From: Patescibacteria group bacterium
GTDB lineage: Bacteria > Patescibacteriota > Gracilibacteria > UBA1369 > 2-02-FULL-48-14
Length of the DNA stretch: 64,000 nucleotides
Assembly (NCBI GenBank): GCA_018816805.1
Contig: JAHIVE010000035.1
Coordinates: forward strand, 37,575-101,574
Direction of reading: 5' to 3'
Part shown: in pieces, positions 3,008 to 56,786 of the stretch
How the letters are laid out: every line of letters begins with the position of its first letter
How positions within the stretch are numbered: position 1 is the stretch's first letter
Notes under the pieces: generated by a model
The model's input: the letters and a program-made list of their open reading frames with translations, nothing else
What the model was told of the DNA's origin: nothing
Database searches by the model: none
Position numbers and translations under genes: made by a program

Positions 3008-5529
3008 TGGACTTCCAGAAGGACCAAATCATGGCCGCTGTAAACAATTGGCCAGCCACTATTTTGCAAGAATTCTTCGAATGCGTCACGTTTTTGGATG
3101 TATTCATCATAAAATTCGGAATCTGTGGAAAGTTCCACTCCGCGATGCATGAAAATATGTGTGATTCCTTTTTCTGCAAAAAGTTGTCTGATTTCCTCAA
3201 TTGATTTTTGTTTAATTGCGCAGGAATAGTAGTCCATAAAGTCGTCGTCAATGATGTTTGAGTCCGGTACTGGTAAAAAATATTTGGATTGGGTTCCAAC
3301 TTTGTAAATTATTGGGGCTTTGTTTGTTTTCTTATACTCGTCCAGGATTTGGACGATTTCATAAAATCCGGGATAAAAATCTATCAGAATTGTGTCGTTG
3401 TTATAAAGTCCGACTGAATAAGCGAACATGCGAGCTTCAGCGTAAAATTGATTTCTTAGCAGGAAATTGCCAATTAGGCTTATAACAATAAACACCATGA
3501 GAATGGTTCGCCACCAGATTTCCTTTTTTTCGATTGTGAAAAATAAAAGTATTACTGCTGGAATGAGGATGAATATCCCATACCAGCTAACCCCGCTGCT
3601 AACGAGCATCCAGAGCAGAGCGTAGGCAGCAGTAAAGACAAGCAGAAGGAGGTTTTTGTTGCTTTCTTGAAAGATTTTTTTGGGGAAAAGCAACCAAAAA
3701 GGCGCAATGCCTAAAAATAAAAAGGTGATATCAGAGATAAATGTTCCGAGCTCAGGCGTCATGGTTGTGTTCCATGGAAAGTATATTAATGATAGCAGGC
3801 CTTGGCCGGGGCCGGCATAGCGTTTGTAGTCGGCAAAGAATGCAAAATTTTCTTGGCAGGATTGAACCCGTTCGTATTCGAATTTTATTATATCTTTCTC
3901 ACCAAAAACCAGAGATGAAATTGTGAAATGGCCCGTCTCAACATAATGCCAAATCATCCATGGCAGCATGAAAAGCAATATTATTCCTCCAAAAATGAGA
4001 AACGGTTTCAATTGTTTTATTGCACCTAACGGTTTTTCTTTTTTGATACTGAAAATTGCGCAAAGAATTGCCAAAATTAAGAAGGCAATTGCAAAGGGAG
4101 TTGGATTTAATTTGAAAGCTTGAAGGGTAGCCATTTGACCACCGAAAGCGAAAGCCGACATGAATGCAAAGTACAAACTTGCTGTAAGGTATTTCTTTTG
4201 GGTTTTTAGATAGAAAGCCAAAAGCAAGAGTACCCATACAAATAACAATGCCGTGATTTTTATTGTTACAAGGAAGCCAAAGAGGACTGCCGTAAGAATG
4301 AGGTCGTGTTTTTTGTCTGAATGCAGCCAAGTTTCCAGTGCCAGCATAGCGGCGATGCTTGTTGCCAGAAGTGGAATTTCAATTTTGGTGTCGATCGCGT
4401 AGAAGAACGAGATCATGGGAATGAGCGATAAAAACAAAGTCGCCCAAAGGGAGCTTGACTGTGAAATGAATTTTCTGGCCAGGATATAGAAAAGGGCCAG
4501 CATTAACGTAAAGGATGTGAAAAGTATTGCGTAAGTTCCTTGGAAGGTGTCTACAAAAAGCCAGGAGATGCTCTGCAAATTTGTCCATGCAGTTGGGCCA
4601 ATGCCTTGCGGGAAAAGATTGTCTGTGACCATTAATTTTGCAGCTCGGCCGTAGAGATTTATGTCGTCCCAAGCAATTGGGAATGGGCGAATAGAATCCA
4701 AAAGGCACATTGCCAGCATGACAATAAAGAAACCAAGAATAACAATGGTTTCTTTTTTATTATTTTCTATAGAGATTCTTTCACTCCAGAGAAATTTAAT
4801 TTTGCCCCATATTTGTTTGAAGCTTATGAGAATTGCAAGTGCCAATACTATTAGAAAAGATTTAATTGTATAAGCGCCAGCTAAGTTAAGAGCGAAAATT
4901 GCTACACTAAAAACAGCGGCGCCGGGAAAGAAGCTGATCAGGTGTTGTTCAAGCGTGATTTGCTTTGCTTTTCTAAAAAATATTGCGGTGCCCAGACCTG
5001 CAAAAATTAAGAAAAATATTAGTGCCCCGGAGAAAGTTGCAAGAATATATTTTGAGTAAGAGACCATTGATTCAATAAATTTTGCCTTTTGAAAGGCTGG
5101 CCTGATGCTTTCGGGGAGGTTTTCCGCTATATACTTAGTTTCACGCACAAGCTGATCTTTTTCAAAAAGAACCGTCATGCTTTCTGTGACATCTTCCGGC
5201 TGCACTATTTCAATTTTTGTTCCCTCTCTGACGAGAGTGCCATCAACAAGCCTTGAGAAATCCGAAACTGCGAATTGATAAGTCCCAACAATAAATGTGC
5301 AAAGGAGAATCAGCCCAAATAGCCATTTGATTGTTATTGATTGCTTTTTCTGGCCAATGAAATATATGGCTGTCGACATGGATAAAGCCAAGAAAATGTG
5401 GAAAGCAGCTAACTTCCAAAAAAGGGCTGCATTTTCGTAATATGGATTAATTTTGTAGAAATTGAACGCCACAAAGCTCATAAAAAATATTGCCACCGCA
5501 AACTTCATATAAGTTAGAGCATTTTTCAT
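3004..5529 (-). CDS. large polytopic membrane protein, probable GT-C fold (ArnT/PMT-like) glycosyltransferase
   Basis: Many hydrophobic segments; PIAWDDINLY loop typical of GT-C enzymes; soluble C-terminal domain (GITHIF); 4-nt overlaps with ispG and dxr. Confidence 0.6.
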   Translation of the reverse strand: MKNALTYMKFAVAIFFMSFVAFNFYKINPYYENAALFWKLAAFHIFLALSMSTAIYFIGQKKQSITIKWLFGLILLCTFIVGTYQFAVSDFSRLVDGTLVREGTKIEIVQPEDVTESMTVLFEKDQLVRETKYIAENLPESIRPAFQKAKFIESMVSYSKYILATFSGALIFFLIFAGLGTAIFFRKAKQITLEQHLISFFPGAAVFSVAIFALNLAGAYTIKSFLIVLALAILISFKQIWGKIKFLWSERISIENNKKETIVILGFFIVMLAMCLLDSIRPFPIAWDDINLYGRAAKLMVTDNLFPQGIGPTAWTNLQSISWLFVDTFQGTYAILFTSFTLMLALFYILARKFISQSSSLWATLFLSLIPMISFFYAIDTKIEIPLLATSIAAMLALETWLHSDKKHDLILTAVLFGFLVTIKITALLFVWVLLLLAFYLKTQKKYLTASLYFAFMSAFAFGGQMATLQAFKLNPTPFAIAFLILAILCAIFSIKKEKPLGAIKQLKPFLIFGGIILLFMLPWMIWHYVETGHFTISSLVFGEKDIIKFEYERVQSCQENFAFFADYKRYAGPGQGLLSLIYFPWNTTMTPELGTFISDITFLFLGIAPFWLLFPKKIFQESNKNLLLLVFTAAYALLWMLVSSGVSWYGIFILIPAVILLFFTIEKKEIWWRTILMVFIVISLIGNFLLRNQFYAEARMFAYSVGLYNNDTILIDFYPGFYEIVQILDEYKKTNKAPIIYKVGTQSKYFLPVPDSNIIDDDFMDYYSCAIKQKSIEEIRQLFAEKGITHIFMHRGVELSTDSEFYDEYIQKRDAFEEFLQNSGWPIVYSGHDLVLLEVQ

Positions 5530-15508: not shown

Positions 15509-15800
15509 GCTCTTTTTTGGTTACTTCCATTTCATTCGGGATTTCTTTCATCCCGTGGGGTGACTTCTCTTGTTTTGTCTTTTTGCCAAGTAAAAGGCGA
15601 CGAGCCAGCTTGAAAAAGCCACTTGCCGTTTCCTTGCCGAGTTTTGATACTTCTTTAAGGTCGGAGCGGGTTTCTTGTCCTTTTTTTGGCGCGAGTGAAA
15701 TTCCCAAAACGGATCCGATAGCGGTGCCAATAATGGCTCCCATTACAATTCGGTCAATTGCGGAGTCATTAGATTTTTCTTTATTTTTTTTCCTTAGCAT
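15492..15800 (-). CDS. YtxH-domain protein
   Basis: GAIIGTAIGSVLGISLAPKKGQETR signature. Confidence 0.8.
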   Translation of the reverse strand: MLRKKNKEKSNDSAIDRIVMGAIIGTAIGSVLGISLAPKKGQETRSDLKEVSKLGKETASGFFKLARRLLLGKKTKQEKSPHGMKEIPNEMEVTKKEHVDRD

Positions 15801-17319
15801 AGTCAACAGCGTGAATTTCACGAATTAAGTTTACTTTAATAATGCCCGGAAAGGAAAGCTCTTCAGATATTTTTTCTGCAATTGAATCTGCAGCGGGCTG
15901 CATTTGATTGTCTTTAATTTGCTTTTCATCCACTATTACGCGCACTTCACGGCCGGCGGACATTGTGTAAACTTTTTTAATTCCACCGTAGGATTTTGCG
16001 GTTTCTTCAAGCTGTTTGATTCTTTCAAAGTAGTTTGTGACGGATTCTTGGCGAGCACCCGGACGAACTGAAGAGATTGCGTCCGCTGCTTTCACAATGA
16101 AGTCAGCTGGGGAGACGCAAGGCACTTTGTCATGATGGGCGAAGGCCGCATAAACAATTTCTTCCGGGAAATTGTATTTTTCCAGGATTTCCTTGCTGAG
16201 GTCGTCATGTGAGCCGCCAAGGTCATGGTCCACGGCTTTACCAATGTCGTGGTAAAAAGCAGCCAGCATTGCAGTTTGCGAGTCCGAACCAATTTGCTCC
16301 GCGAGTAAACGGGCAATGTGGGCCATTTCAATTGAGTGTTGAAGAACGTTTTGTCCAAAAGAAGTGCGGAAATACATTCTTCCAACAAGGTTTACCAATT
16401 CAGGATCTAGTGTTTTAAAGTCAATGTCCATCATTTGCATGGCTTCTTTGCCTTTGTTGTCGCAGATGCCCATGATTTCTTTTTCAGATTCTTCAACACA
16501 TTCTTTGACCATTGGTGGATCAATTTTGCCGGACTTTGCGCTGCGTTTTTGAAGTCGATTGATGGCGCCTTTTGCAATGTGTCTGCGCAGCAGGTTTACG
16601 CCGCCGACATGAATTTCCATTGGGTCCAAATTGAAAATAATGGAGACCGGCAGGAGGCTTTCAAGATATTGGATGTTTTGGCCACCTTTGCCAATTAGTA
16701 TGCCTTTAAATTTGTCTGATTTGAGGTTTACTGTGGTTGAGTTTTTGTCAACTGAGCTTTGAGTTTGGAGGCGCTGAATTACCGGGCGGAGAACCGCCTT
16801 TGCTTGAATTTGTGCCTCTTCCGTGTATTCTTCAATGTAGCCTTTTGTGCGTGCCTCACGATTTTCTGTGATAACTTCATTCAGTTGTTTTTCAATGTGT
16901 GCTTTGGCTTTTTCTGCCGTGGCGCCCGCGGTTTGGGCAAGGGCGGCTATCATTTTGTCGCTGATTTGCTCGGTGGATTTTTGAAGGTCTTCGACTTGTT
17001 TTTCAACTTGTTTTAGCGAGCCTTCATATGATTTGTTGCGGTGCTCTTTGCGCTCTAAAAGTTCTTCTTTTTGCTTTAGAGTGGATTCAAGGTTTTTTTC
17101 ATGTTCGGCAAAATATTTTTCTTCATCTTGGAGGATTTTTTGGGCGCGAGCGATTTGTTCTTTGCTTTTATGTTTGATCTCGCCGGCTTGTTCTTTGGCT
17201 TTTTGCAAAATGGCTTCATCCGCGGGTGTTTCTTCCATTTTTTCACGAATCATGCTGTAGGAGACGGCGCCGCCGAGTCCCAAACCGATAAGTCCGATGA
17301 TAATATTTACAAACGTCAT
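15781..17319 (-). CDS. rny: ribonuclease Y
   Basis: N-terminal TM, coiled coil, KH (IGKGGQNI), HD (HDIGK, HH, ADAISSVRPGARQES), AGREVRVIV. Confidence 0.92.
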   Translation of the reverse strand: MTFVNIIIGLIGLGLGGAVSYSMIREKMEETPADEAILQKAKEQAGEIKHKSKEQIARAQKILQDEEKYFAEHEKNLESTLKQKEELLERKEHRNKSYEGSLKQVEKQVEDLQKSTEQISDKMIAALAQTAGATAEKAKAHIEKQLNEVITENREARTKGYIEEYTEEAQIQAKAVLRPVIQRLQTQSSVDKNSTTVNLKSDKFKGILIGKGGQNIQYLESLLPVSIIFNLDPMEIHVGGVNLLRRHIAKGAINRLQKRSAKSGKIDPPMVKECVEESEKEIMGICDNKGKEAMQMMDIDFKTLDPELVNLVGRMYFRTSFGQNVLQHSIEMAHIARLLAEQIGSDSQTAMLAAFYHDIGKAVDHDLGGSHDDLSKEILEKYNFPEEIVYAAFAHHDKVPCVSPADFIVKAADAISSVRPGARQESVTNYFERIKQLEETAKSYGGIKKVYTMSAGREVRVIVDEKQIKDNQMQPAADSIAEKISEELSFPGIIKVNLIREIHAVDYAKEKK

Positions 17320-21447: not shown

Positions 21448-21822
21448 TTAGAGGTTTGCTTTTAAGCCAAATCTGTAGTAGCTGGCCGCCTCATCAGATT
21501 CATTTGCCGTGTCTAGTCGAGTTACAATGCAATTATCCAATCCATAGTCTGCTTGGATATTTGAAAATACACATTCGATAAAATTGCAGTTTGAAAAATC
21601 CACGGCTATAAATGCTGACTTTCTGAATAATACATTGTTGAAAGTGCAGTTTTTGAATATTCCGCTACAAAAGTCGCCACCGTAGATTTCACAATTTTCA
21701 AAGACGGTATCAATGAAATCCAGATCCATCAGTGAACTGGCTTCTTTTATAAGAAAAACTCCACTGATTTTGTTGGTGGTTTTTAAGAGGTTGAGGAGGT
21801 CGTCTTCGTTTAAGGTTTGCAT
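21448..21822 (-). CDS. pentapeptide repeat protein
   Basis: Repeated xxFxx/xCxFx units (VFENC, IFKNC, TFNNV, DFSNC, NFIEC). Confidence 0.8.
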   Translation of the reverse strand: MQTLNEDDLLNLLKTTNKISGVFLIKEASSLMDLDFIDTVFENCEIYGGDFCSGIFKNCTFNNVLFRKSAFIAVDFSNCNFIECVFSNIQADYGLDNCIVTRLDTANESDEAASYYRFGLKANL

Positions 21823-21862
21823 GTTGAAGAATTGTAATTTGATGTTAGCAAATATTTTTTCC

Positions 21863-21913
21863 TTGAGCCAGAAGCATTTATTTTGCTAGTGTTGTTCCTT
21901 AGCTCTTTGACAA
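21863..21913 (+). promoter_or_regulatory. putative promoter followed by a boxA-like sequence
   Basis: TTGAGC-18 nt-TAGTGT with extended TG; GCTCTTTGACAA at 21902-21913 resembles rrn boxA (TGCTCTTTAACA). Confidence 0.5.
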
Positions 21914-22000
21914 TTCAATCCGTGATAGTAAATTGTCTATTTGCGTTTAGGCGGTTTACTGTCACTGATTGAAGGTTGCTGAATAAGGAGGAAGGAAGTA

Positions 22001-22315
22001 ATGCCACAGAAATACAAGTTCGGCGAGCATATTGTCGAAGAAGGACAGTGGACTACCTGGCACATGGTCGATGGGTACTGGACGAAATCCCAAAATGATG
22101 GCGTCTGGACCCACAACCTCTTCGCAGATCCCGAGATGGACACCGACAAGAAGCGAGATGCAAACCACATTCACATCAAGTTCCGCCTTCGGCCTGACGG
22201 GACGGAAGAGTTCGTGTGTTGCTCCATCAAGGTAGATCGCATGAACGAGACGAGCAGGAGGAAGATGATCGAGGACGTCAACAGACTGACCGGTCTCAAC
22301 CTCTCCTACAAGTAG
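22001..22315 (+). CDS. hypothetical 104-aa protein enclosed by inverted repeats
   Basis: Strong SD AAGGAGG at 21985-21991; C-ending codon bias unlike neighbours; no recognisable family. Confidence 0.8.
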   Translation: MPQKYKFGEHIVEEGQWTTWHMVDGYWTKSQNDGVWTHNLFADPEMDTDKKRDANHIHIKFRLRPDGTEEFVCCSIKVDRMNETSRRKMIEDVNRLTGLNLSYK

Positions 22316-22347
22316 AAGCCAATAGCAACAACCAGCAATCAGTGACG

Positions 22348-22411
22348 GTGTATCGAGCAGTGATGACTTAAACCATCGTGAGATGAGTGAAGAGTCTGCT
22401 GACCGATATAT
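22348..22411 (+). ncRNA. putative structured RNA domain downstream of the 104-aa ORF
   Basis: Nested pairings GTGTATCG/CGATATAT and AGCAG/CTGCT, plus a CATC-GTGA-GATG GNRA hairpin. Confidence 0.4.
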
Positions 22412-22412
22412 T

Positions 22413-22445
22413 AGGAGGGGAATTAGGTAAAACTGTTCCTCTCCT
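22413..22445. terminator. terminator-like hairpin between convergent genes
   Basis: AGGAGGGGAA...TTCCTCTCCT 10-bp stem; no long U tract. Confidence 0.45.
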
Positions 22446-22454
22446 TCCCAATAA

Positions 22455-22757
22455 TTAAATGTCTTCGATTTCTACTCTGAGTCCGTTTTTTTTCTTGATG
22501 AAATGAATAACAACATTTGCTCTAAACACTATCCAGTTACCATGGACCTCACTTGAATATGGGGAATCATATGGTGGATTATCATTGGCCTCAACTGTTG
22601 CGACAATGTCATCTGCTTTTTGTCCCTCATGATAATAATAAATTGGTTTGTTTTTGTGATCGTGATCTTTAAAAAGGTCACAGCTAATTTTGTAATATTT
22701 CCCATGCCTTTCATAAGTTTTCATTTCACCAATATGCAAATCAAATTTTGTTATCAT
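22455..22757 (-). CDS. hypothetical protein (AT-rich)
   Basis: 100-aa ORF, low GC, in the tRNA-Asp-adjacent variable region. Confidence 0.6.
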   Translation of the reverse strand: MITKFDLHIGEMKTYERHGKYYKISCDLFKDHDHKNKPIYYYHEGQKADDIVATVEANDNPPYDSPYSSEVHGNWIVFRANVVIHFIKKKNGLRVEIEDI

Positions 22758-22975: not shown

Positions 22976-23052
22976 TGGCGGAATGGACGGGACTCGAACC
23001 CGCGACCTCCTGCGTGACAGGCAGGCGCTCTAACCAACTGAGCTACCACTCC
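22976..23052 (-). tRNA. tRNA-Asp (GTC)
   Basis: GGAGTGGTAGCTCAGTTGGTTAGAGCGCCTGCCTGTCACGCAGGAGGTCGCGGGTTCGAGTCCCGTCCATTCCGCCA; cloverleaf with encoded CCA. Confidence 0.98.
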
Positions 23053-44256: not shown

Positions 44257-46149
44257 ATGAACAGTAAAATGGATAAATTATCGAAGTGGCTCAAATCAAC
44301 CGTGCAGGGCGGGGATACTGCTCCACTAGAGGCTAAGAAGCCCGAAAACAAACCTACAAATAAACCTTATAAAAAGCCGTACAAAAAGCCTCAAAAACAA
44401 CAGGGGTCGCATGGAAAAAACAAACCACAGCAGAGGGGGAGAAAGCAGCCTTCGACAAGTAGGAAGCCGTCATTTATGCCGGTACACCGCAATGTTCTCA
44501 GGGTAATCCCAATTGGCGGGCTTGAAGAGGTGGGGAAGAACTCAATGGTTCTTGAATATGAGGAAGATATTTTGGTGATTGATATGGGATTTCAGTTTCC
44601 GGAAGATGAGATGCTTGGAGTGGATTATGTGGTGCCGGACGTGAAGTATCTCACGGAGCGAAAGGACCGAATTAAGGCAATTGTGATTACGCATGGGCAT
44701 ATGGACCACATTGGTGGCCTGCCATATGTTCTTCCGGACCTTGGATTCCCGGATGTTTATGCGCCAAGACTGGCGGCCGGTCTGATTGAGCGGATTTTGG
44801 GTGAGCATAAGATGCTGAAACGAGTGAATTTGAAGGTTATTGATGACAAGCAGGTTTACCGGTTTGGGGTGTTTGAACTGGAGTATTTCCACGTAAATCA
44901 TTCAATTCCGGACTCAAAGGGGCTCACCGTGAGCACGCCGGACGGCTCCAGAATTGTGCATACCGGCGACTTTAAATTTGATTTTACTCCGGCGGATGGT
45001 GTGCCTTCTGATATTGGGAAAATTACTTCCATTGGAAAGAGGGGTGTGAACGTGCTGTTTTCTGATAGTACAAATGCGACCAAGCCGGGACACACGCTGT
45101 CCGAGCGGGTGGTTGCGGAAAGTTTGAGTAGTGCAATTGAGGATGCGGAGGGGCGAATTGTTATTGCTTCGTTCTCTTCTTTGATTGGACGAATTCAGCA
45201 AATTATTGATTTTGCGGCTGAGCATGGTCGGAAGGTTTTCTTTTCCGGTCGCAGCATGATTCAGAATGTGGAAATTGCCAGGCGACTTGGGTTTATGAGG
45301 TTTACGGACAGTCTTGTTCGGCCAATTCAAGAAGTAAATAATTTTGCTCCAAACCAGGTTTTGGTGATTACGACCGGCAGCCAAGGTGAGCCTATGGCGG
45401 CTTTGTCACGCATGGCGAATGACAGCCATGCACAGGTAAAAATCCAGAAAGGCGACACTGTTGTTGTGAGCGCTTCTCCAATAATGGGGAACGAGATGGC
45501 GGTTGCGTTTTTGGTGGATAAATTGGCGCGACTGGGGGCGCGAGTGATTCATAATGCAATTATGGATATTCACACTTCCGGGCACGGGAACCAGGAGGAT
45601 TTGAAGATGATGATGAGCCTTGTTCGTCCGGACCATTTGGTGCCAATTCATGGAAATTACTACATGAGGTCTGCGCATGCGGAGCTTGGGCGGCAGATGG
45701 GGCTTACAGATTCTAACGTGCATTTGATGGATAACGGGAATGTTATTGAGGTTCGAAAAGGCGCGGTTTCGTTCAAGAAAGAGGATATTAAGGTTAAGTA
45801 TGTGGTTGTGGACGGGCATGGAGTGGGAGATCTTGGTTCGCAGGTTTTGAAGGACCGCGAGGCTATGGCAGAGAATGGCGTGGTGACGATTTTGTTTAAG
45901 GTTCGCGGGAAAAAGATGGTTGGGAATCCGGTTGTGATTACGAACGGATTTGTATACCAGAAAGAAACCGAGAAGATTGTGGCGGAAATTGAGCGTGAAG
46001 CGCGGAAGGCGTTTAATGATTTTCATAAGACGCGGCCGGCCGGGAAAACGGGAGATCTTGAGCGGCACATTAAAAGTGCGGTTTTGGGATATATTGTGAG
46101 GCGGCTGGACAGAAGGCCGCTGGTTTCTCCGCACATGGTGAGGGTGTGA
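44257..46149 (+). CDS. rnj: ribonuclease J
   Basis: GGLEEVGKN, THGHMDHIGG, HTGDFK, DSTNA, TGSQGEP, HTSGH, PIHG; basic disordered N-terminal extension. Confidence 0.97.
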   Translation: MNSKMDKLSKWLKSTVQGGDTAPLEAKKPENKPTNKPYKKPYKKPQKQQGSHGKNKPQQRGRKQPSTSRKPSFMPVHRNVLRVIPIGGLEEVGKNSMVLEYEEDILVIDMGFQFPEDEMLGVDYVVPDVKYLTERKDRIKAIVITHGHMDHIGGLPYVLPDLGFPDVYAPRLAAGLIERILGEHKMLKRVNLKVIDDKQVYRFGVFELEYFHVNHSIPDSKGLTVSTPDGSRIVHTGDFKFDFTPADGVPSDIGKITSIGKRGVNVLFSDSTNATKPGHTLSERVVAESLSSAIEDAEGRIVIASFSSLIGRIQQIIDFAAEHGRKVFFSGRSMIQNVEIARRLGFMRFTDSLVRPIQEVNNFAPNQVLVITTGSQGEPMAALSRMANDSHAQVKIQKGDTVVVSASPIMGNEMAVAFLVDKLARLGARVIHNAIMDIHTSGHGNQEDLKMMMSLVRPDHLVPIHGNYYMRSAHAELGRQMGLTDSNVHLMDNGNVIEVRKGAVSFKKEDIKVKYVVVDGHGVGDLGSQVLKDREAMAENGVVTILFKVRGKKMVGNPVVITNGFVYQKETEKIVAEIEREARKAFNDFHKTRPAGKTGDLERHIKSAVLGYIVRRLDRRPLVSPHMVRV

Positions 46150-56362: not shown

Positions 56363-56786
56363 GGGGATGAATGAAGGTTTCGACAGAAAGATTCGAATTC
56401 AATTGTTTGCTTTCAGGTGGTTGTCCAGTCCCACCTCAATCCGTCCTGGACAAATTTAAGTGCTAAACCACTTGCTAAGTTACGTGATGCTCTTCGCATG
56501 GAAGAAGCTTCGGCTTTCGCTCCTGTATTTGCATAAACGGGCTTGATGTCCTGCCATTTTGCGGGACCCGCTCACCGGTCTAGATTTCGTAAGCCGATTG
56601 AGTGTCATTTACGAGATGTAGGTGATTTGCTGCTGGCAGGCTGGCAATGATCCCAAATTTTGGTCTGCTCGCGGCGACTGTTTTTGTCGCTTCTTTATGG
56701 GCGTCGCGCAACTAGAAGTGACTATGAAAGTAGAGAGCGATTCAATTCCTTTTTGGACGCGGGTTCGACTCCCGCCATCTCCACCA
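56363..56786 (+). ncRNA. ssrA: transfer-messenger RNA
   Basis: 5' GGGGATGAA..GGTTTCGAC; 3' GACGCGGGTTCGACTCCCGCCATCTCCACCA; tag frame 56462-56536 (A)AKPLAKLRDALRMEEASAFAPVFA*. Confidence 0.95.

Follow-up and report, generated by a model that had tools for sequence, protein, structure and literature searches.

In the 64,000-nucleotide stretch of patescibacterial DNA analysed here (the window), a gene for a small His-rich protein is surrounded by RNA elements conserved in its relatives: a 5′ hairpin, a helix that joins the two untranslated regions and encloses the ORF, and a structured 3′ UTR domain. All three covary in homologues and none has a match in Rfam, which bears out the proposal of an undescribed RNA-controlled unit made in a preliminary description of this DNA. 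Hairpin and helix claim the same strand, and a sequence resembling the boxA of rRNA leaders precedes both; judging from this layout, an mRNA design with paired ends and rRNA-like leader probably sets the lifetime of the message and the timing of its reading. The RNA alignments throughout comprise 6 to 13 related sequences. The features are as follows:

21448..21822, minus strand: gene for a pentapeptide-repeat protein of 124 aa, divergent neighbour (Pfam matches)
21864..21893, plus strand: candidate weak promoter TTGAGC-18-TAGTGT (found by eye, below the scan threshold)
21902..21912, plus strand: boxA-like element GCTCTTTGACA, 10 of 11 positions of GYTCTTTAANA
21914..21973, plus strand: 5′ hairpin, core 21922-21939/21948-21965 (folding and covariation)
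21958..21981, plus strand: 5′ strand of the long-range helix, 21 of 24 positions paired (covariation and locus-specific complementarity)
21985..21991, plus strand: Shine-Dalgarno sequence (SD) AAGGAGG, 9 nt ahead of the ATG at 22001
22001..22315, plus strand: small gene, 104 aa
22326..22349, plus strand: 3′ strand of the long-range helix, beginning 11 nt past the stop codon (same basis)
22349..22413, plus strand: 3′ UTR domain of three helices, P1 to P3 (folding and covariation)
22349-22355/22404-22410 and 22358-22361/22398-22401, plus strand: P1 of the 3′ UTR domain
22365-22369/22392-22396, plus strand: P2 of the 3′ UTR domain
22372-22388, plus strand: P3, a hairpin of the 3′ UTR domain
22413..22445, plus strand: terminal hairpin, −17.5 kcal/mol, z −2.54, aligning with terminators of relatives

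The small gene and its divergent neighbour

On the evidence of its homologues and composition, the 104-aa ORF is a real gene and belongs to a rare, unnamed family of small (about 100 aa) His-rich proteins. A phmmer search at E ≤ 0.001 gave 36 proteins, the query counted among them; H38, L40, H56, H58 and K60 are invariant in the 32 aligned sequences, and GC content at codon positions 1, 2 and 3 (0.49/0.34/0.74) is of the coding type. The protein is hydrophilic (GRAVY −0.97, highest 19-aa hydropathy window −0.13, with no hydrophobic window) and contains a basic segment, NRRxLIExIN. Searches against Pfam, NCBIfam, PHROGs, PADLOC and PDB sequences produced zero matches, ESM Atlas gave no usable one, a word-index search returned the query alone, and no relative was found in viral contigs, phage records or plasmid records. 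The bearers of the gene are tiny groundwater bacteria.

Three conjectures about the coding sequence were discarded. The high GC3 is not taken as a mark of high expression, the values for EF-Tu and EF-G being 0.35 and 0.34; codon usage of the ORF falls at the 57.8th percentile of similarity to that of these two genes. Simple recent transfer was dropped because GC3 of the ORF exceeds that of the pentapeptide neighbour in 12 of 12 loci. Comparison of 14 other GC3-rich ORFs with Pfam left eight without a match and assigned six, including a radical SAM protein, a tRNA synthetase, a polysaccharide-synthesis protein, an integrase and a TrmB-type regulator. Additional structure within the ORF was set aside as weak (mean z −0.99 versus synonymous shuffles, −0.59 in the window).

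The neighbouring gene on the minus strand matches the pentapeptide-repeat families PF13576 (27.1 bits, cut-off 27) and PF00805 (25.8 bits, cut-off 20.2). Such a gene stands beside the small ORF in the window and in 12 further loci with Pfam matches, 13 of 15 in all; of the other two, L026 was left unscanned and the contig of L028 ends 44 nt upstream of the ORF. The pair is mostly divergent rather than arranged as an operon, and the two-gene module sits in changing neighbourhoods. Its occurrence is patchy: within the own family 1 of 28 genomes has it, within the order of the related genome G455 11 of 204, and within a sample of the class 3 of 401. Homologues of the pentapeptide-repeat protein are encoded in 3 of 27 own-family genomes, with different neighbours at both loci that were read (L066 and L068). 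Literature searches on pentapeptide repeat proteins in Patescibacteria, and on pentapeptide repeats combined with a small protein, toxin-antitoxin or DNA mimic, gave no relevant earlier description.

Covarying RNA elements around the ORF

The 5′ hairpin proposed earlier pairs at 18 of 18 positions of its core, four of the pairs being G·U, and in its extended form (21914-21973) reaches −31.8 kcal/mol (z −10.35; 0 of 200 shuffles fold as well), while the minus strand of the same region attains only −16.7 kcal/mol. The subgroup of the window (six loci) is characterised by a G·U-rich hairpin of 22-26 bp. Across six loci 97.0% of 132 alignment cells are paired, with compensatory changes in 9 of 22 pairs; none of 500 shuffles reached the percentage paired, the pairs or cells with double change or the covariation score, and one of 500 reached the count of further pair types. 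No counts were taken from the full-length alignment A9, in which the hairpins of L021 and L023 are misplaced. G·U pairs occupy 25 of the 132 cells, and their largely one-directional bias, considered for a time, was dropped at 14 versus 11 (both summed by hand). With the covariance model built from the leader (R1), the plus strand yields 63.7 bits and the minus strand 21.

The long-range arm, said to pair with the region beyond the stop codon, does so at 21 of 24 positions (20 Watson-Crick pairs and one G·U), and its gapless 15-bp core is matched by 1 of 300 dinucleotide shuffles of both UTRs. Among six aligned loci 86.1% of 101 cells are paired and 8 of 17 pairs contain double changes; slid controls gave 32-45% paired, and the observed value was reached by 0 of 265 derangements. 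A second measure is the duplex energy between cognate UTRs, which in seven independent lineages sums to −207.5 as compared to −116.9 ± 8.4 (minimum −140.0) in 1854 derangements, none of which reached the cognate sum; the helix sequences are thus locus-specific in the seven lineages. The best gapless helix of the window and of loci L014, L027 and L030 lies at −27 to −44 from the start codon and +10 to +24 after the stop codon. Across loci the 5′ strand ends 3-20 nt before the SD and the 3′ strand is found about 10-25 nt past the stop, and since a 5′ UTR strand upstream of the SD pairs with sequence past the stop codon, the ORF, as far as pairing and covariation tell, is enclosed in a closed panhandle. 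In most other loci the long-range pairing consists of 7-10 bp segments with internal loops. Distant family members possess the panhandle and lack the boxA.

Hairpin and panhandle overlap at 21958-21965, as had been noticed, and because this segment is common to both, the two folds exclude each other. The claim of mutual exclusion extends to the relatives: the 3′ arm of the hairpin is the 5′ strand of the panhandle in all six subgroup loci. Most pairs of the overlap are invariant, so that covariation within it is thin. Predicted energies favour the hairpin, and the full-length minimum free energy fold of the window contains eight long-range pairs, rising to 19 only once the 5′ arm is blocked.

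The ORF is preceded by the strong SD that the preliminary description had reported, and the further RNA domain it placed behind the ORF is likewise real in terms of folding (22349-22413, −22.7 kcal/mol, z −4.92) and is kept in relatives. No other RNA part is conserved as widely as this 3′ domain, which follows the 3′ strand of the panhandle directly. Its alignment of 12 loci has 79.0% of 262 cells paired versus 64.3% in shuffles, with P3 paired at 100%, and double changes in 51 cells versus 23.6 expected; 0 of 500 shuffles reached the percentage paired, the number of double-change cells or the covariation score. Weaker measures are the pairs with double change and the further pair types, reached by 23 and 65 of 500 shuffles, respectively. 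The unpaired stretches nAAG and RGCRAAAG are conserved as well.

For the terminal hairpin the earlier claim stands in part. The hairpin itself is present and aligns with the T-run-bearing GGGGGCAA..TTGCCCCC terminators of relatives; the window's copy lacks a following T run and was not picked up by the terminator scan. The specific complementarity of its 3′ arm to the SD fell away: pairing energies of cognate combinations in six loci average −11.2 (computed by hand from six values) versus −10.5 for non-cognate ones, and the complementarity is of a generic purine/pyrimidine kind.

Both covariance models match only this gene in the own genome and 150 sampled genomes each, with the exception of one weak 26-bit hit; the model of the 3′ domain (R2) scores 54.4 bits at the window and has no second match in the own genome. 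Since the models match nothing else in these genomes, we are dealing with a gene-specific mRNA architecture rather than a reusable or mobile scaffold, and the suggested mobile RNA element carrying different ORFs was abandoned. Rfam models reached their threshold in the whole window only for tmRNA and one tRNA located elsewhere; within 21700-22600 the best match was 20.7 bits against a threshold of 150. Conserved elements on the minus strand, as would be expected of an antisense RNA, were not seen, both RNA models being far weaker there.

The boxA-like element and candidate promoters

The boxA-like element noticed earlier matches the consensus GYTCTTTAANA, formulated for gamma-proteobacteria (PMC5725501), at 10 of 11 positions by eye. 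Compared by eye to the same gamma-proteobacterial consensus, relatives score 11 of 11 (L014 and L016), 10 of 11 (L021 and L023) and 9 of 11 (L020). The own genome has no assembled 16S gene, and comparison was made with the leaders of relatives: the 16S leaders of the related genomes G455 and G579 carry the same element, positions 21902-21920 being identical by eye to the boxA region of the G455 leader at 16 of 19 positions, and L021 shares CTTTAACATT with the 16S leader of its own genome. Both the consensus match and the leaders of the two related genomes lend support to the boxA reading. In G579 the 16S processing stem begins inside boxA, an arrangement on which the Nus tethering model is built (PMC4807359). 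The pattern occurs six times in the genome of the window, the window's copy being the sole intergenic-looking one; the other five look by eye like coding DNA.

For the promoter named in the preliminary description there are two candidates. The weak TTGAGC-18-TAGTGT would leave 8 nt (21894-21901) between its −10 element and boxA; the comparable gap is 11 nt in L023 (TTGTAA-18-TATAGT) and also 11 nt in the 16S leader of G455. The only consensus match in the scan, TTGACA at 21907 with a 16-nt spacer and TAAATT ending at 21934 (10 of 12), would put the start site within the hairpin, and boxA would then not be transcribed. In distant loci CTTGACA at the equivalent place is clearly a −35 box, its −10 box standing at a distance of 16-19 nt, and promoter spacers of distant members contain runs of G7-G9. 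The other five loci of the subgroup have no −10 box at a suitable distance from the motif.

Of the machinery, NusB, RNase III (directly after nusB), RNase J and RNase Y are all encoded in the own genome. The RNA-binding domain of Rho was not found in this genome, which is 89.66% complete, and for this reason classic antitermination may have no role here. A literature search on boxA in the candidate phyla radiation gave no relevant description.

A proposed paired-end mRNA and its alternatives

With moderate confidence we favour reading the transcript as an mRNA of rRNA style, assisted by Nus factors, closed, protected from nucleases and with hairpin and panhandle as alternative folds. The segment 21864-22449 would then be the transcription unit of the His-rich protein, its mRNA built like a small rRNA precursor and its product working together with the pentapeptide-repeat neighbour. 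Transcription would begin just upstream of boxA, which NusB and S10 would bind, tethering the leader to the polymerase as proposed for rRNA. The hairpin would fold first, holding the 5′ strand of the panhandle, until emergence of the 3′ partner allows strand exchange to close the panhandle. The closed form would keep RNase J and RNase Y away from the 5′ region and bring the 3′ domain beside the ribosome-binding site; because it both hides the 5′ region and so places the 3′ domain, the balance between hairpin and panhandle would set message stability as well as translation. In a bolder and rather doubtful version, the mRNA has adopted the logic of rRNA maturation, with the boxA-recruited Nus complex chaperoning the UTR-UTR helix and thereby delivering the 3′ domain to the ribosome-binding site, and the switch exerting on/off control over a small protein that works alongside a DNA-mimic pentapeptide partner.

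Four other explanations were weighed against this paired-end reading. An unlikely one assumes a silent message of the toxin type, in which the small protein is harmful (acting, for example, on a DNA-bound target such as gyrase), the pentapeptide-repeat protein is protective and the mRNA is inert until processed or refolded, as for hok or aapA1. A 5′ hairpin together with 5′-3′ pairing fits the architecture of aapA1 (PMC5416894), protection of gyrase is a reviewed role of pentapeptide-repeat proteins (PMC10886550), a ParE-like toxin of Citrobacter koseri is regulated by a boxA (PMC5725501), the two genes form a self-contained module of patchy distribution in changing neighbourhoods, and the G7-G9 runs of the distant promoter spacers hint at on/off control. 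However, the protein of 104 aa is hydrophilic, sequestration of the SD is not conserved (the long-range helix stops upstream of it and its pairing with the terminator is unspecific), no antisense partner is visible, and the hairpin is predicted as the stable rather than the metastable state; PADLOC gave no match and the two genes mostly do not form an operon. On the grounds of size, hydropathy and the lack of a conserved SD sequestration or a visible antisense partner, membership among type I toxins, entertained in the preliminary description, is therefore not upheld. Less likely is an operator in the 3′ UTR, where the 3′ domain binds the encoded protein or another factor; since the panhandle carries the domain next to the ribosome-binding site, such binding would feed back on translation. 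It is consistent with the wide conservation of the domain (12 loci, P3 fully paired, conserved nAAG and RGCRAAAG), with its position abutting the 3′ strand of the panhandle, the 5′ strand of which stops 3-20 nt short of the SD, and with the basic NRRxLIExIN segment of the protein. Searches gave the protein no family, fold or solved relative, and nothing points to RNA binding by it.

Still more doubtful is rRNA-like processing, in which RNase III cuts the panhandle, the hairpin or both, leaving a stable mRNA, trimmed and paired at its ends, while the 3′ domain is released as an RNA of its own. In its favour the helix of the window is paired at 21 of 24 positions, the hairpin reaches 18-26 bp, the RNase III gene directly follows nusB, and the 16S precursor of a related genome likewise has boxA beside the upstream arm of a long processing stem. 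Substrates of RNase III usually span roughly two helical turns, whereas the long-range pairing in most other loci consists of 7-10 bp segments with internal loops and is shorter than that. Finally, the inverted repeats might be operator or promoter elements of a divergent intergenic region, with the boxA-like motif merely a −35 box. The TTGACA-16-TAAATT site (10 of 12) does overlap the motif and the 5′ arm of the hairpin, and in distant loci a good −10 box accompanies CTTGACA as the −35 box. Such a purely DNA-level function is nonetheless highly improbable: 25 of 132 hairpin cells are G·U, which would be mismatched in DNA and likewise on the opposite strand; the minus strand is inferior in folding energy (−16.7 versus −31.8 kcal/mol) and model score (21 versus 63.7 bits); the sequence pairing with the shared arm is found past the ORF, at a distance of 344 nt, and covaries; and a −10 box at the right distance is missing in the other five subgroup loci.

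Several known systems share parts of the architecture. The boxA-like element of the window shares its sequence type with the 16S leader boxA of related genomes and stands upstream of the 5′ arm of a helix enclosing the product, the partner arm following the product; as in the rRNA processing stem, a long-range helix is formed from product-flanking sequences, and NusB and RNase III are encoded in the host. In contrast to rRNA, the product here is a translated ORF with a strong SD, boxA is separated from the upstream arm by a competing hairpin, the helix does not attain the length of the rRNA stem and in most loci is interrupted, and distant members have no boxA. The mRNAs of suhB and of the C. 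koseri ParE-like toxin resemble the present one in having a consensus-type boxA in the leader of a protein gene, and there boxA, which was sought within 50 nt of the start codon, is described as repressing translation and promoting Rho termination (PMC5725501); here, by contrast, the putative boxA lies about 90 nt upstream with the hairpin in between, and Rho was not found in the genome.

[quoted passage not shown] It resembles the present case in an ORF of the size of a small abundant protein, a strong SD and paired UTRs, the host here having both RNase J and RNase Y; it differs in that pairing here covaries across lineages and competes with a local hairpin, with a boxA before and a 3′ domain after. 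Pairing of 5′ and 3′ UTRs is also described for the icaR mRNA of Staphylococcus aureus (PMC3868564). There, as here, the two pairing partners belong to one mRNA. The icaR 3′ UTR reportedly pairs with the SD region itself, whereas the conserved helix here is located upstream of the SD, and the complementarity between SD and terminator shows no locus specificity. Alternative folds governed by a 5′ hairpin and long-distance 5′-3′ pairing are described for the short aapA1 mRNA (PMC5416894), and the same fold-governing pairing for the type I toxin mRNAs hok/Sok and aapA1/IsoA1 (PMC6733600). Both features and the predicted alternative folds recur here, but a small hydrophobic peptide and conserved occlusion of the SD do not, no antisense RNA was found, and predictions do not make the hairpin a metastable one.

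Pairing between the UTRs of bacterial mRNAs is known from few single-organism cases, and here it is accompanied by covariation across several lineages; further features beside the pairing itself are a boxA of rRNA type, a competing hairpin and a dedicated 3′ UTR domain. If the bolder version of the proposal is true, the mRNA would parallel, in bacteria, the closed-loop and 3′ enhancer designs found in mRNAs of eukaryotes and viruses. How boxA complexes unite distant RNA segments is a hard question to approach on rRNA itself, and if Nus tethering operates here, the short transcript would allow a direct test of it. For Patescibacteria, where most small genes are without assigned role, a new small-protein family is defined, together with a conserved partnership between the small His-rich protein and a pentapeptide-repeat protein.

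A small histidine-rich gene and its pentapeptide-repeat partner

The hairpin, long-range arms, strong ribosome-binding site and small ORF reported in the preliminary description are present in the sequence as described and go far beyond chance:

21922-21939 / 21948-21965, plus strand: core of 5′ hairpin, 18/18 positions paired, 4 of them G.U
21958-21981 / 22326-22349, plus strand: long-range helix, 21/24 positions paired
21985-21991, plus strand: Shine-Dalgarno sequence AAGGAGG, read from the sequence
22001-22315, plus strand: ORF of 104 aa, preceded by this strong Shine-Dalgarno sequence

GC content at codon positions 1, 2 and 3 of the ORF (0.49, 0.34 and 0.74) has a coding pattern, and exhaustive phmmer search revealed 36 proteins at E ≤ 0.001 with the query counted in (7 at E ≤ 1e-10); word-index search with the same protein recovered the query alone. 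Five residues (H38, L40, H56, H58 and K60) are invariant in 32 aligned family members, and the motifs DEPNPDxNHxHxK and VLCSVKxDGxRxxNRRxLIExINxxTGLxLxY[RK] recur. No member rises above noise in Pfam, PHROGs or NCBIfam, the profile of the small protein retrieves no solved structure at E ≤ 10, and source annotations of the family are absent or read “hypothetical protein”. PADLOC gave no match for seven of the eight module proteins scanned and one weak match (E 0.013) for the eighth. Judged by these sequence features, the ORF is genuine, and its protein family has no name. In 12 of 12 loci its GC fraction at third codon positions (0.45-0.75) exceeds that of the adjacent pentapeptide gene (0.24-0.42). 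Since this trait is family-wide, it is not explained by simple recent transfer; host high-expression codon usage was ruled out by codon-usage comparison, and a weak link to extra folding within the ORF was noticed. One idea is that AU-rich cleavage sites would be avoided in a long-lived message.

The cassette is single-copy in its own genome (1.18 Mb, 51 contigs, 89.66% complete), and the small protein was found in none of the other 27 genomes of the family. Within a sample of 401 genomes of the phylum it was found in two, i.e., this genome and one weak case, within the order of G455, a further Patescibacteria genome, in 11 of 204, and within the class sample of G455 in 3 of 401, while search with DNA of the unit in 60 relatives yielded nothing above chance-level words. 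Related loci were collected by metagenome scan (L014 and L015), genome scan (L016 and L017) and order search. A pentapeptide-repeat gene of about 110 aa adjoins the small ORF in 13 of 15 loci, the other two being L026, which was unscanned, and L028, where the contig stops 44 nt upstream of the ORF. These neighbors, mostly divergent and in some loci on the same strand, form a well-conserved subfamily (mean column identity 47%), and the remaining neighbors vary by locus (RuvB, PGK, metallo-beta-lactamase-fold protein, TsaD, and others). Locus L014 carries a second pentapeptide-repeat gene (1228-1542) and, after it, an ORF whose 81-aa product is distantly related to the small protein (1624-1869; hhalign probability 81.8%), and this pair is read as a tandem second module. 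Thus, the constancy of the partner, the variability of other neighbors and the second pair in L014 define the unit as a two-gene module. Longer pentapeptide homologues (141-143 aa) occur beside unrelated ORFs and without the small protein in two genomes of the same family (L066 in G012 and L068 in G023).

Covarying elements at both ends of the message

The extended 5′ hairpin (21914-21973) folds at -31.8 kcal/mol (z -10.35, equalled by 0/200 shuffles), and its opposite strand at -16.7 kcal/mol only. UTRs were aligned across both ends for the window, L014, L016, L020, L021 and L023, the subgroup in which 97.0% of 132 hairpin cells (one locus by one pair) are paired and 9/22 pairs have compensatory changes. 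None of 500 shuffles matches the percentage paired, double-change counts or covariation score, one reaches the further pair types, and slid controls give 36-47% paired. On the window, the leader covariance model R1 gives 63.7 bits for the plus and 21 bits for the minus strand, so that the conserved element, as far as folding and covariation indicate, is a plus-strand RNA.

The 15-bp gapless core of the long-range helix is equalled by 1/300 shuffles, and the region 21890-22460 as a whole folds at -186.8 kcal/mol (z -3.95). Of 101 cells in the six-locus alignment, 86.1% are paired, with both-side changes in 8/17 pairs, as compared with 32-45% paired in slid controls; none of 265 derangements of the 3′ rows attains the observed value. 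Distant loci form an equivalent helix from quite different sequences (e.g., TTGTGCCGGA/TCCGGCACAA in L030 and TGTGTGGGAG/TTCCCACGCA in L027), the pairing there seeming to begin within a few nt of the predicted start site. For seven independent lineages, duplex energies of cognate 5′ and 3′ UTRs total -207.5 versus a mean of -116.9 ± 8.4 and a minimum of -140.0 in 1854 derangements.

Further downstream, a 3′ domain composed of stems P1, P2 and P3 and conserved joining stretches nAAG and RGCRAAAG is alignable in 12 loci, where 79.0% of 262 cells are paired (64.3% in shuffles), P3 reaching 100% with compensatory changes in 5/6 of its pairs. Double changes occupy 51 cells versus 23.6 expected; the percentage paired, double-change cells and covariation score are reached by 0/500 shuffles, pairs with double change by 23/500 and further pair types by 65/500. 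R2, the covariance model of this domain, scores 54.4 bits on the window. Thus, all three elements covary in relatives, as the preliminary description had suggested checking; panhandle and 3′ domain are the universal trait. A terminator hairpin comes after the 3′ domain, its window copy lacking a T run. Six nt from it stops a convergent 100-aa ORF (22455-22757, minus strand), for which Pfam and PADLOC gave no match and of which the other loci showed no counterpart. At a distance of 530 nt downstream, the cassette is followed by a tRNA gene (22979-23052, minus strand), a tRNA-like sequence was noticed by eye downstream of the L025 cassette, and a tmRNA gene is located elsewhere in the window (56363-56786, plus strand).

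In alignment A4 the 3′ arm of the hairpin occupies columns 71-92 and the 5′ strand of the long-range helix occupies columns 82-99, an overlap shared by all six loci; therefore, mutual exclusion of the two structures, proposed initially for the window, is a conserved property. The full-length minimum free energy fold of the window retains 8 long-range pairs, and 19 once the 5′ arm is blocked, predicted energies thereby favoring the hairpin.

Rfam search at the cassette returned nothing at gathering thresholds, and its best hit at E ≤ 10 has 20.7 bits versus a threshold of 150. Neither R1 nor R2 has a second site in the own genome. In 150 sampled genomes of the order of G455, R1 found the four known loci only; R2, likewise in 150 genomes, found known loci only, besides one 26-bit match. 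In the genomes searched, the RNA architecture is specific to this one gene, and the earlier suggestion of a scaffold with different ORFs or a mobile RNA element gains no ground.

The boxA-like motif and the start of transcription

Matches to the published gamma-proteobacterial consensus GYTCTTTAANA (PMC5725501, whose supplementary boxA tables might bear on this consensus) were scored by eye. The 16S leaders compared belong to two cassette-bearing related genomes, G455 and G579, the own genome being without assembled 16S.

Consensus positions matched by boxA and boxA-like motifs
Window, GCTCTTTGACA: 10/11 (gamma-proteobacterial consensus)
L014 and L016: 11/11 each
L021 and L023: 10/11 each
L020: 9/11
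16S leader of G455, GTTCTTTAACA: 11/11
16S leader of G579, GTCCTTTAACA: 10/11

Positions 21902-21920 agree with the G455 leader in 16 of 19 nucleotides, and L021 has CTTTAACATT in common with the 16S leader of the genome it comes from. In the rRNA operon of G579 (L031, 1380-1420 / 3035-3075) boxA contains the beginning of the 16S processing stem, whose pairing with the 3′ flank spans about 33 nt, the layout underlying the Nus tethering and chaperone model as outlined in PMC4807359. In the own genome the RNase III gene comes immediately after nusB (contig C30, 45712-46522, outside the window).

The motif might nevertheless be part of a promoter and not boxA: consensus scan places TTGACA at 21907 and, after a 16-nt spacer, TAAATT, this promoter overlying the motif, and in distant loci CTTGACA is clearly the -35 box. 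Initiation within the hairpin fits poorly with the many window-specific compensatory changes, and since these keep the 5′ arm paired, transcription is taken to start upstream of 21914. In the distant members L025, L026, L024 and L030, TTGACA...TAnnnT promoters lie 74-101 nt before the small ORF, and their spacers (19, 16, 10 and 17 nt, respectively) contain G7-G9; the pattern resembles slipped-strand phase variation of the promoter, unless the G runs are assembly errors at homopolymers.

Possible closure of the message

The favored reading is that the mRNA would be closed by the panhandle and hence protected from nucleases. In the window's subgroup, boxA and Nus factors together with the hairpin may guide or gate co-transcriptional closure. 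As the hairpin is energetically favored, full closure would then need an extra factor, candidates being protein binding, hairpin cleavage and kinetics. The window contains genes for RNase J (44500-46134, plus strand, 581 bits) and for a second RNase Y-like protein (15793-17232, minus strand; 398 bits, under the family cut-off of 454), the full RNase Y gene being on contig C43; the search for a Rho RNA-binding domain in the own genome (89.66% complete) was negative. Rival explanations are excision by RNase III, a 3′ UTR operator for autoregulation, or a silent message of toxin type, against whose product the pentapeptide protein would protect. Membership among type I toxins is rejected: with a GRAVY of -0.97 the small protein is hydrophilic, and it contains no hydrophobic window. 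What stands of the initial interpretation is a gene unit under RNA control that is undescribed and has genuine parallels to rRNA; the mobile-scaffold and type I toxin parts are dropped. No description of the cassette was found in the literature, supplementary files of the cited papers aside. Messages with paired 5′ and 3′ UTRs and boxA-led mRNAs are known kinds, and the cassette mRNA shares the UTR pairing and, in the window's subgroup, may bear the boxA-like motif in its leader; what is new is the RNA domain and the protein family, combined with 5′/3′ UTR pairing and a putative boxA-led leader.
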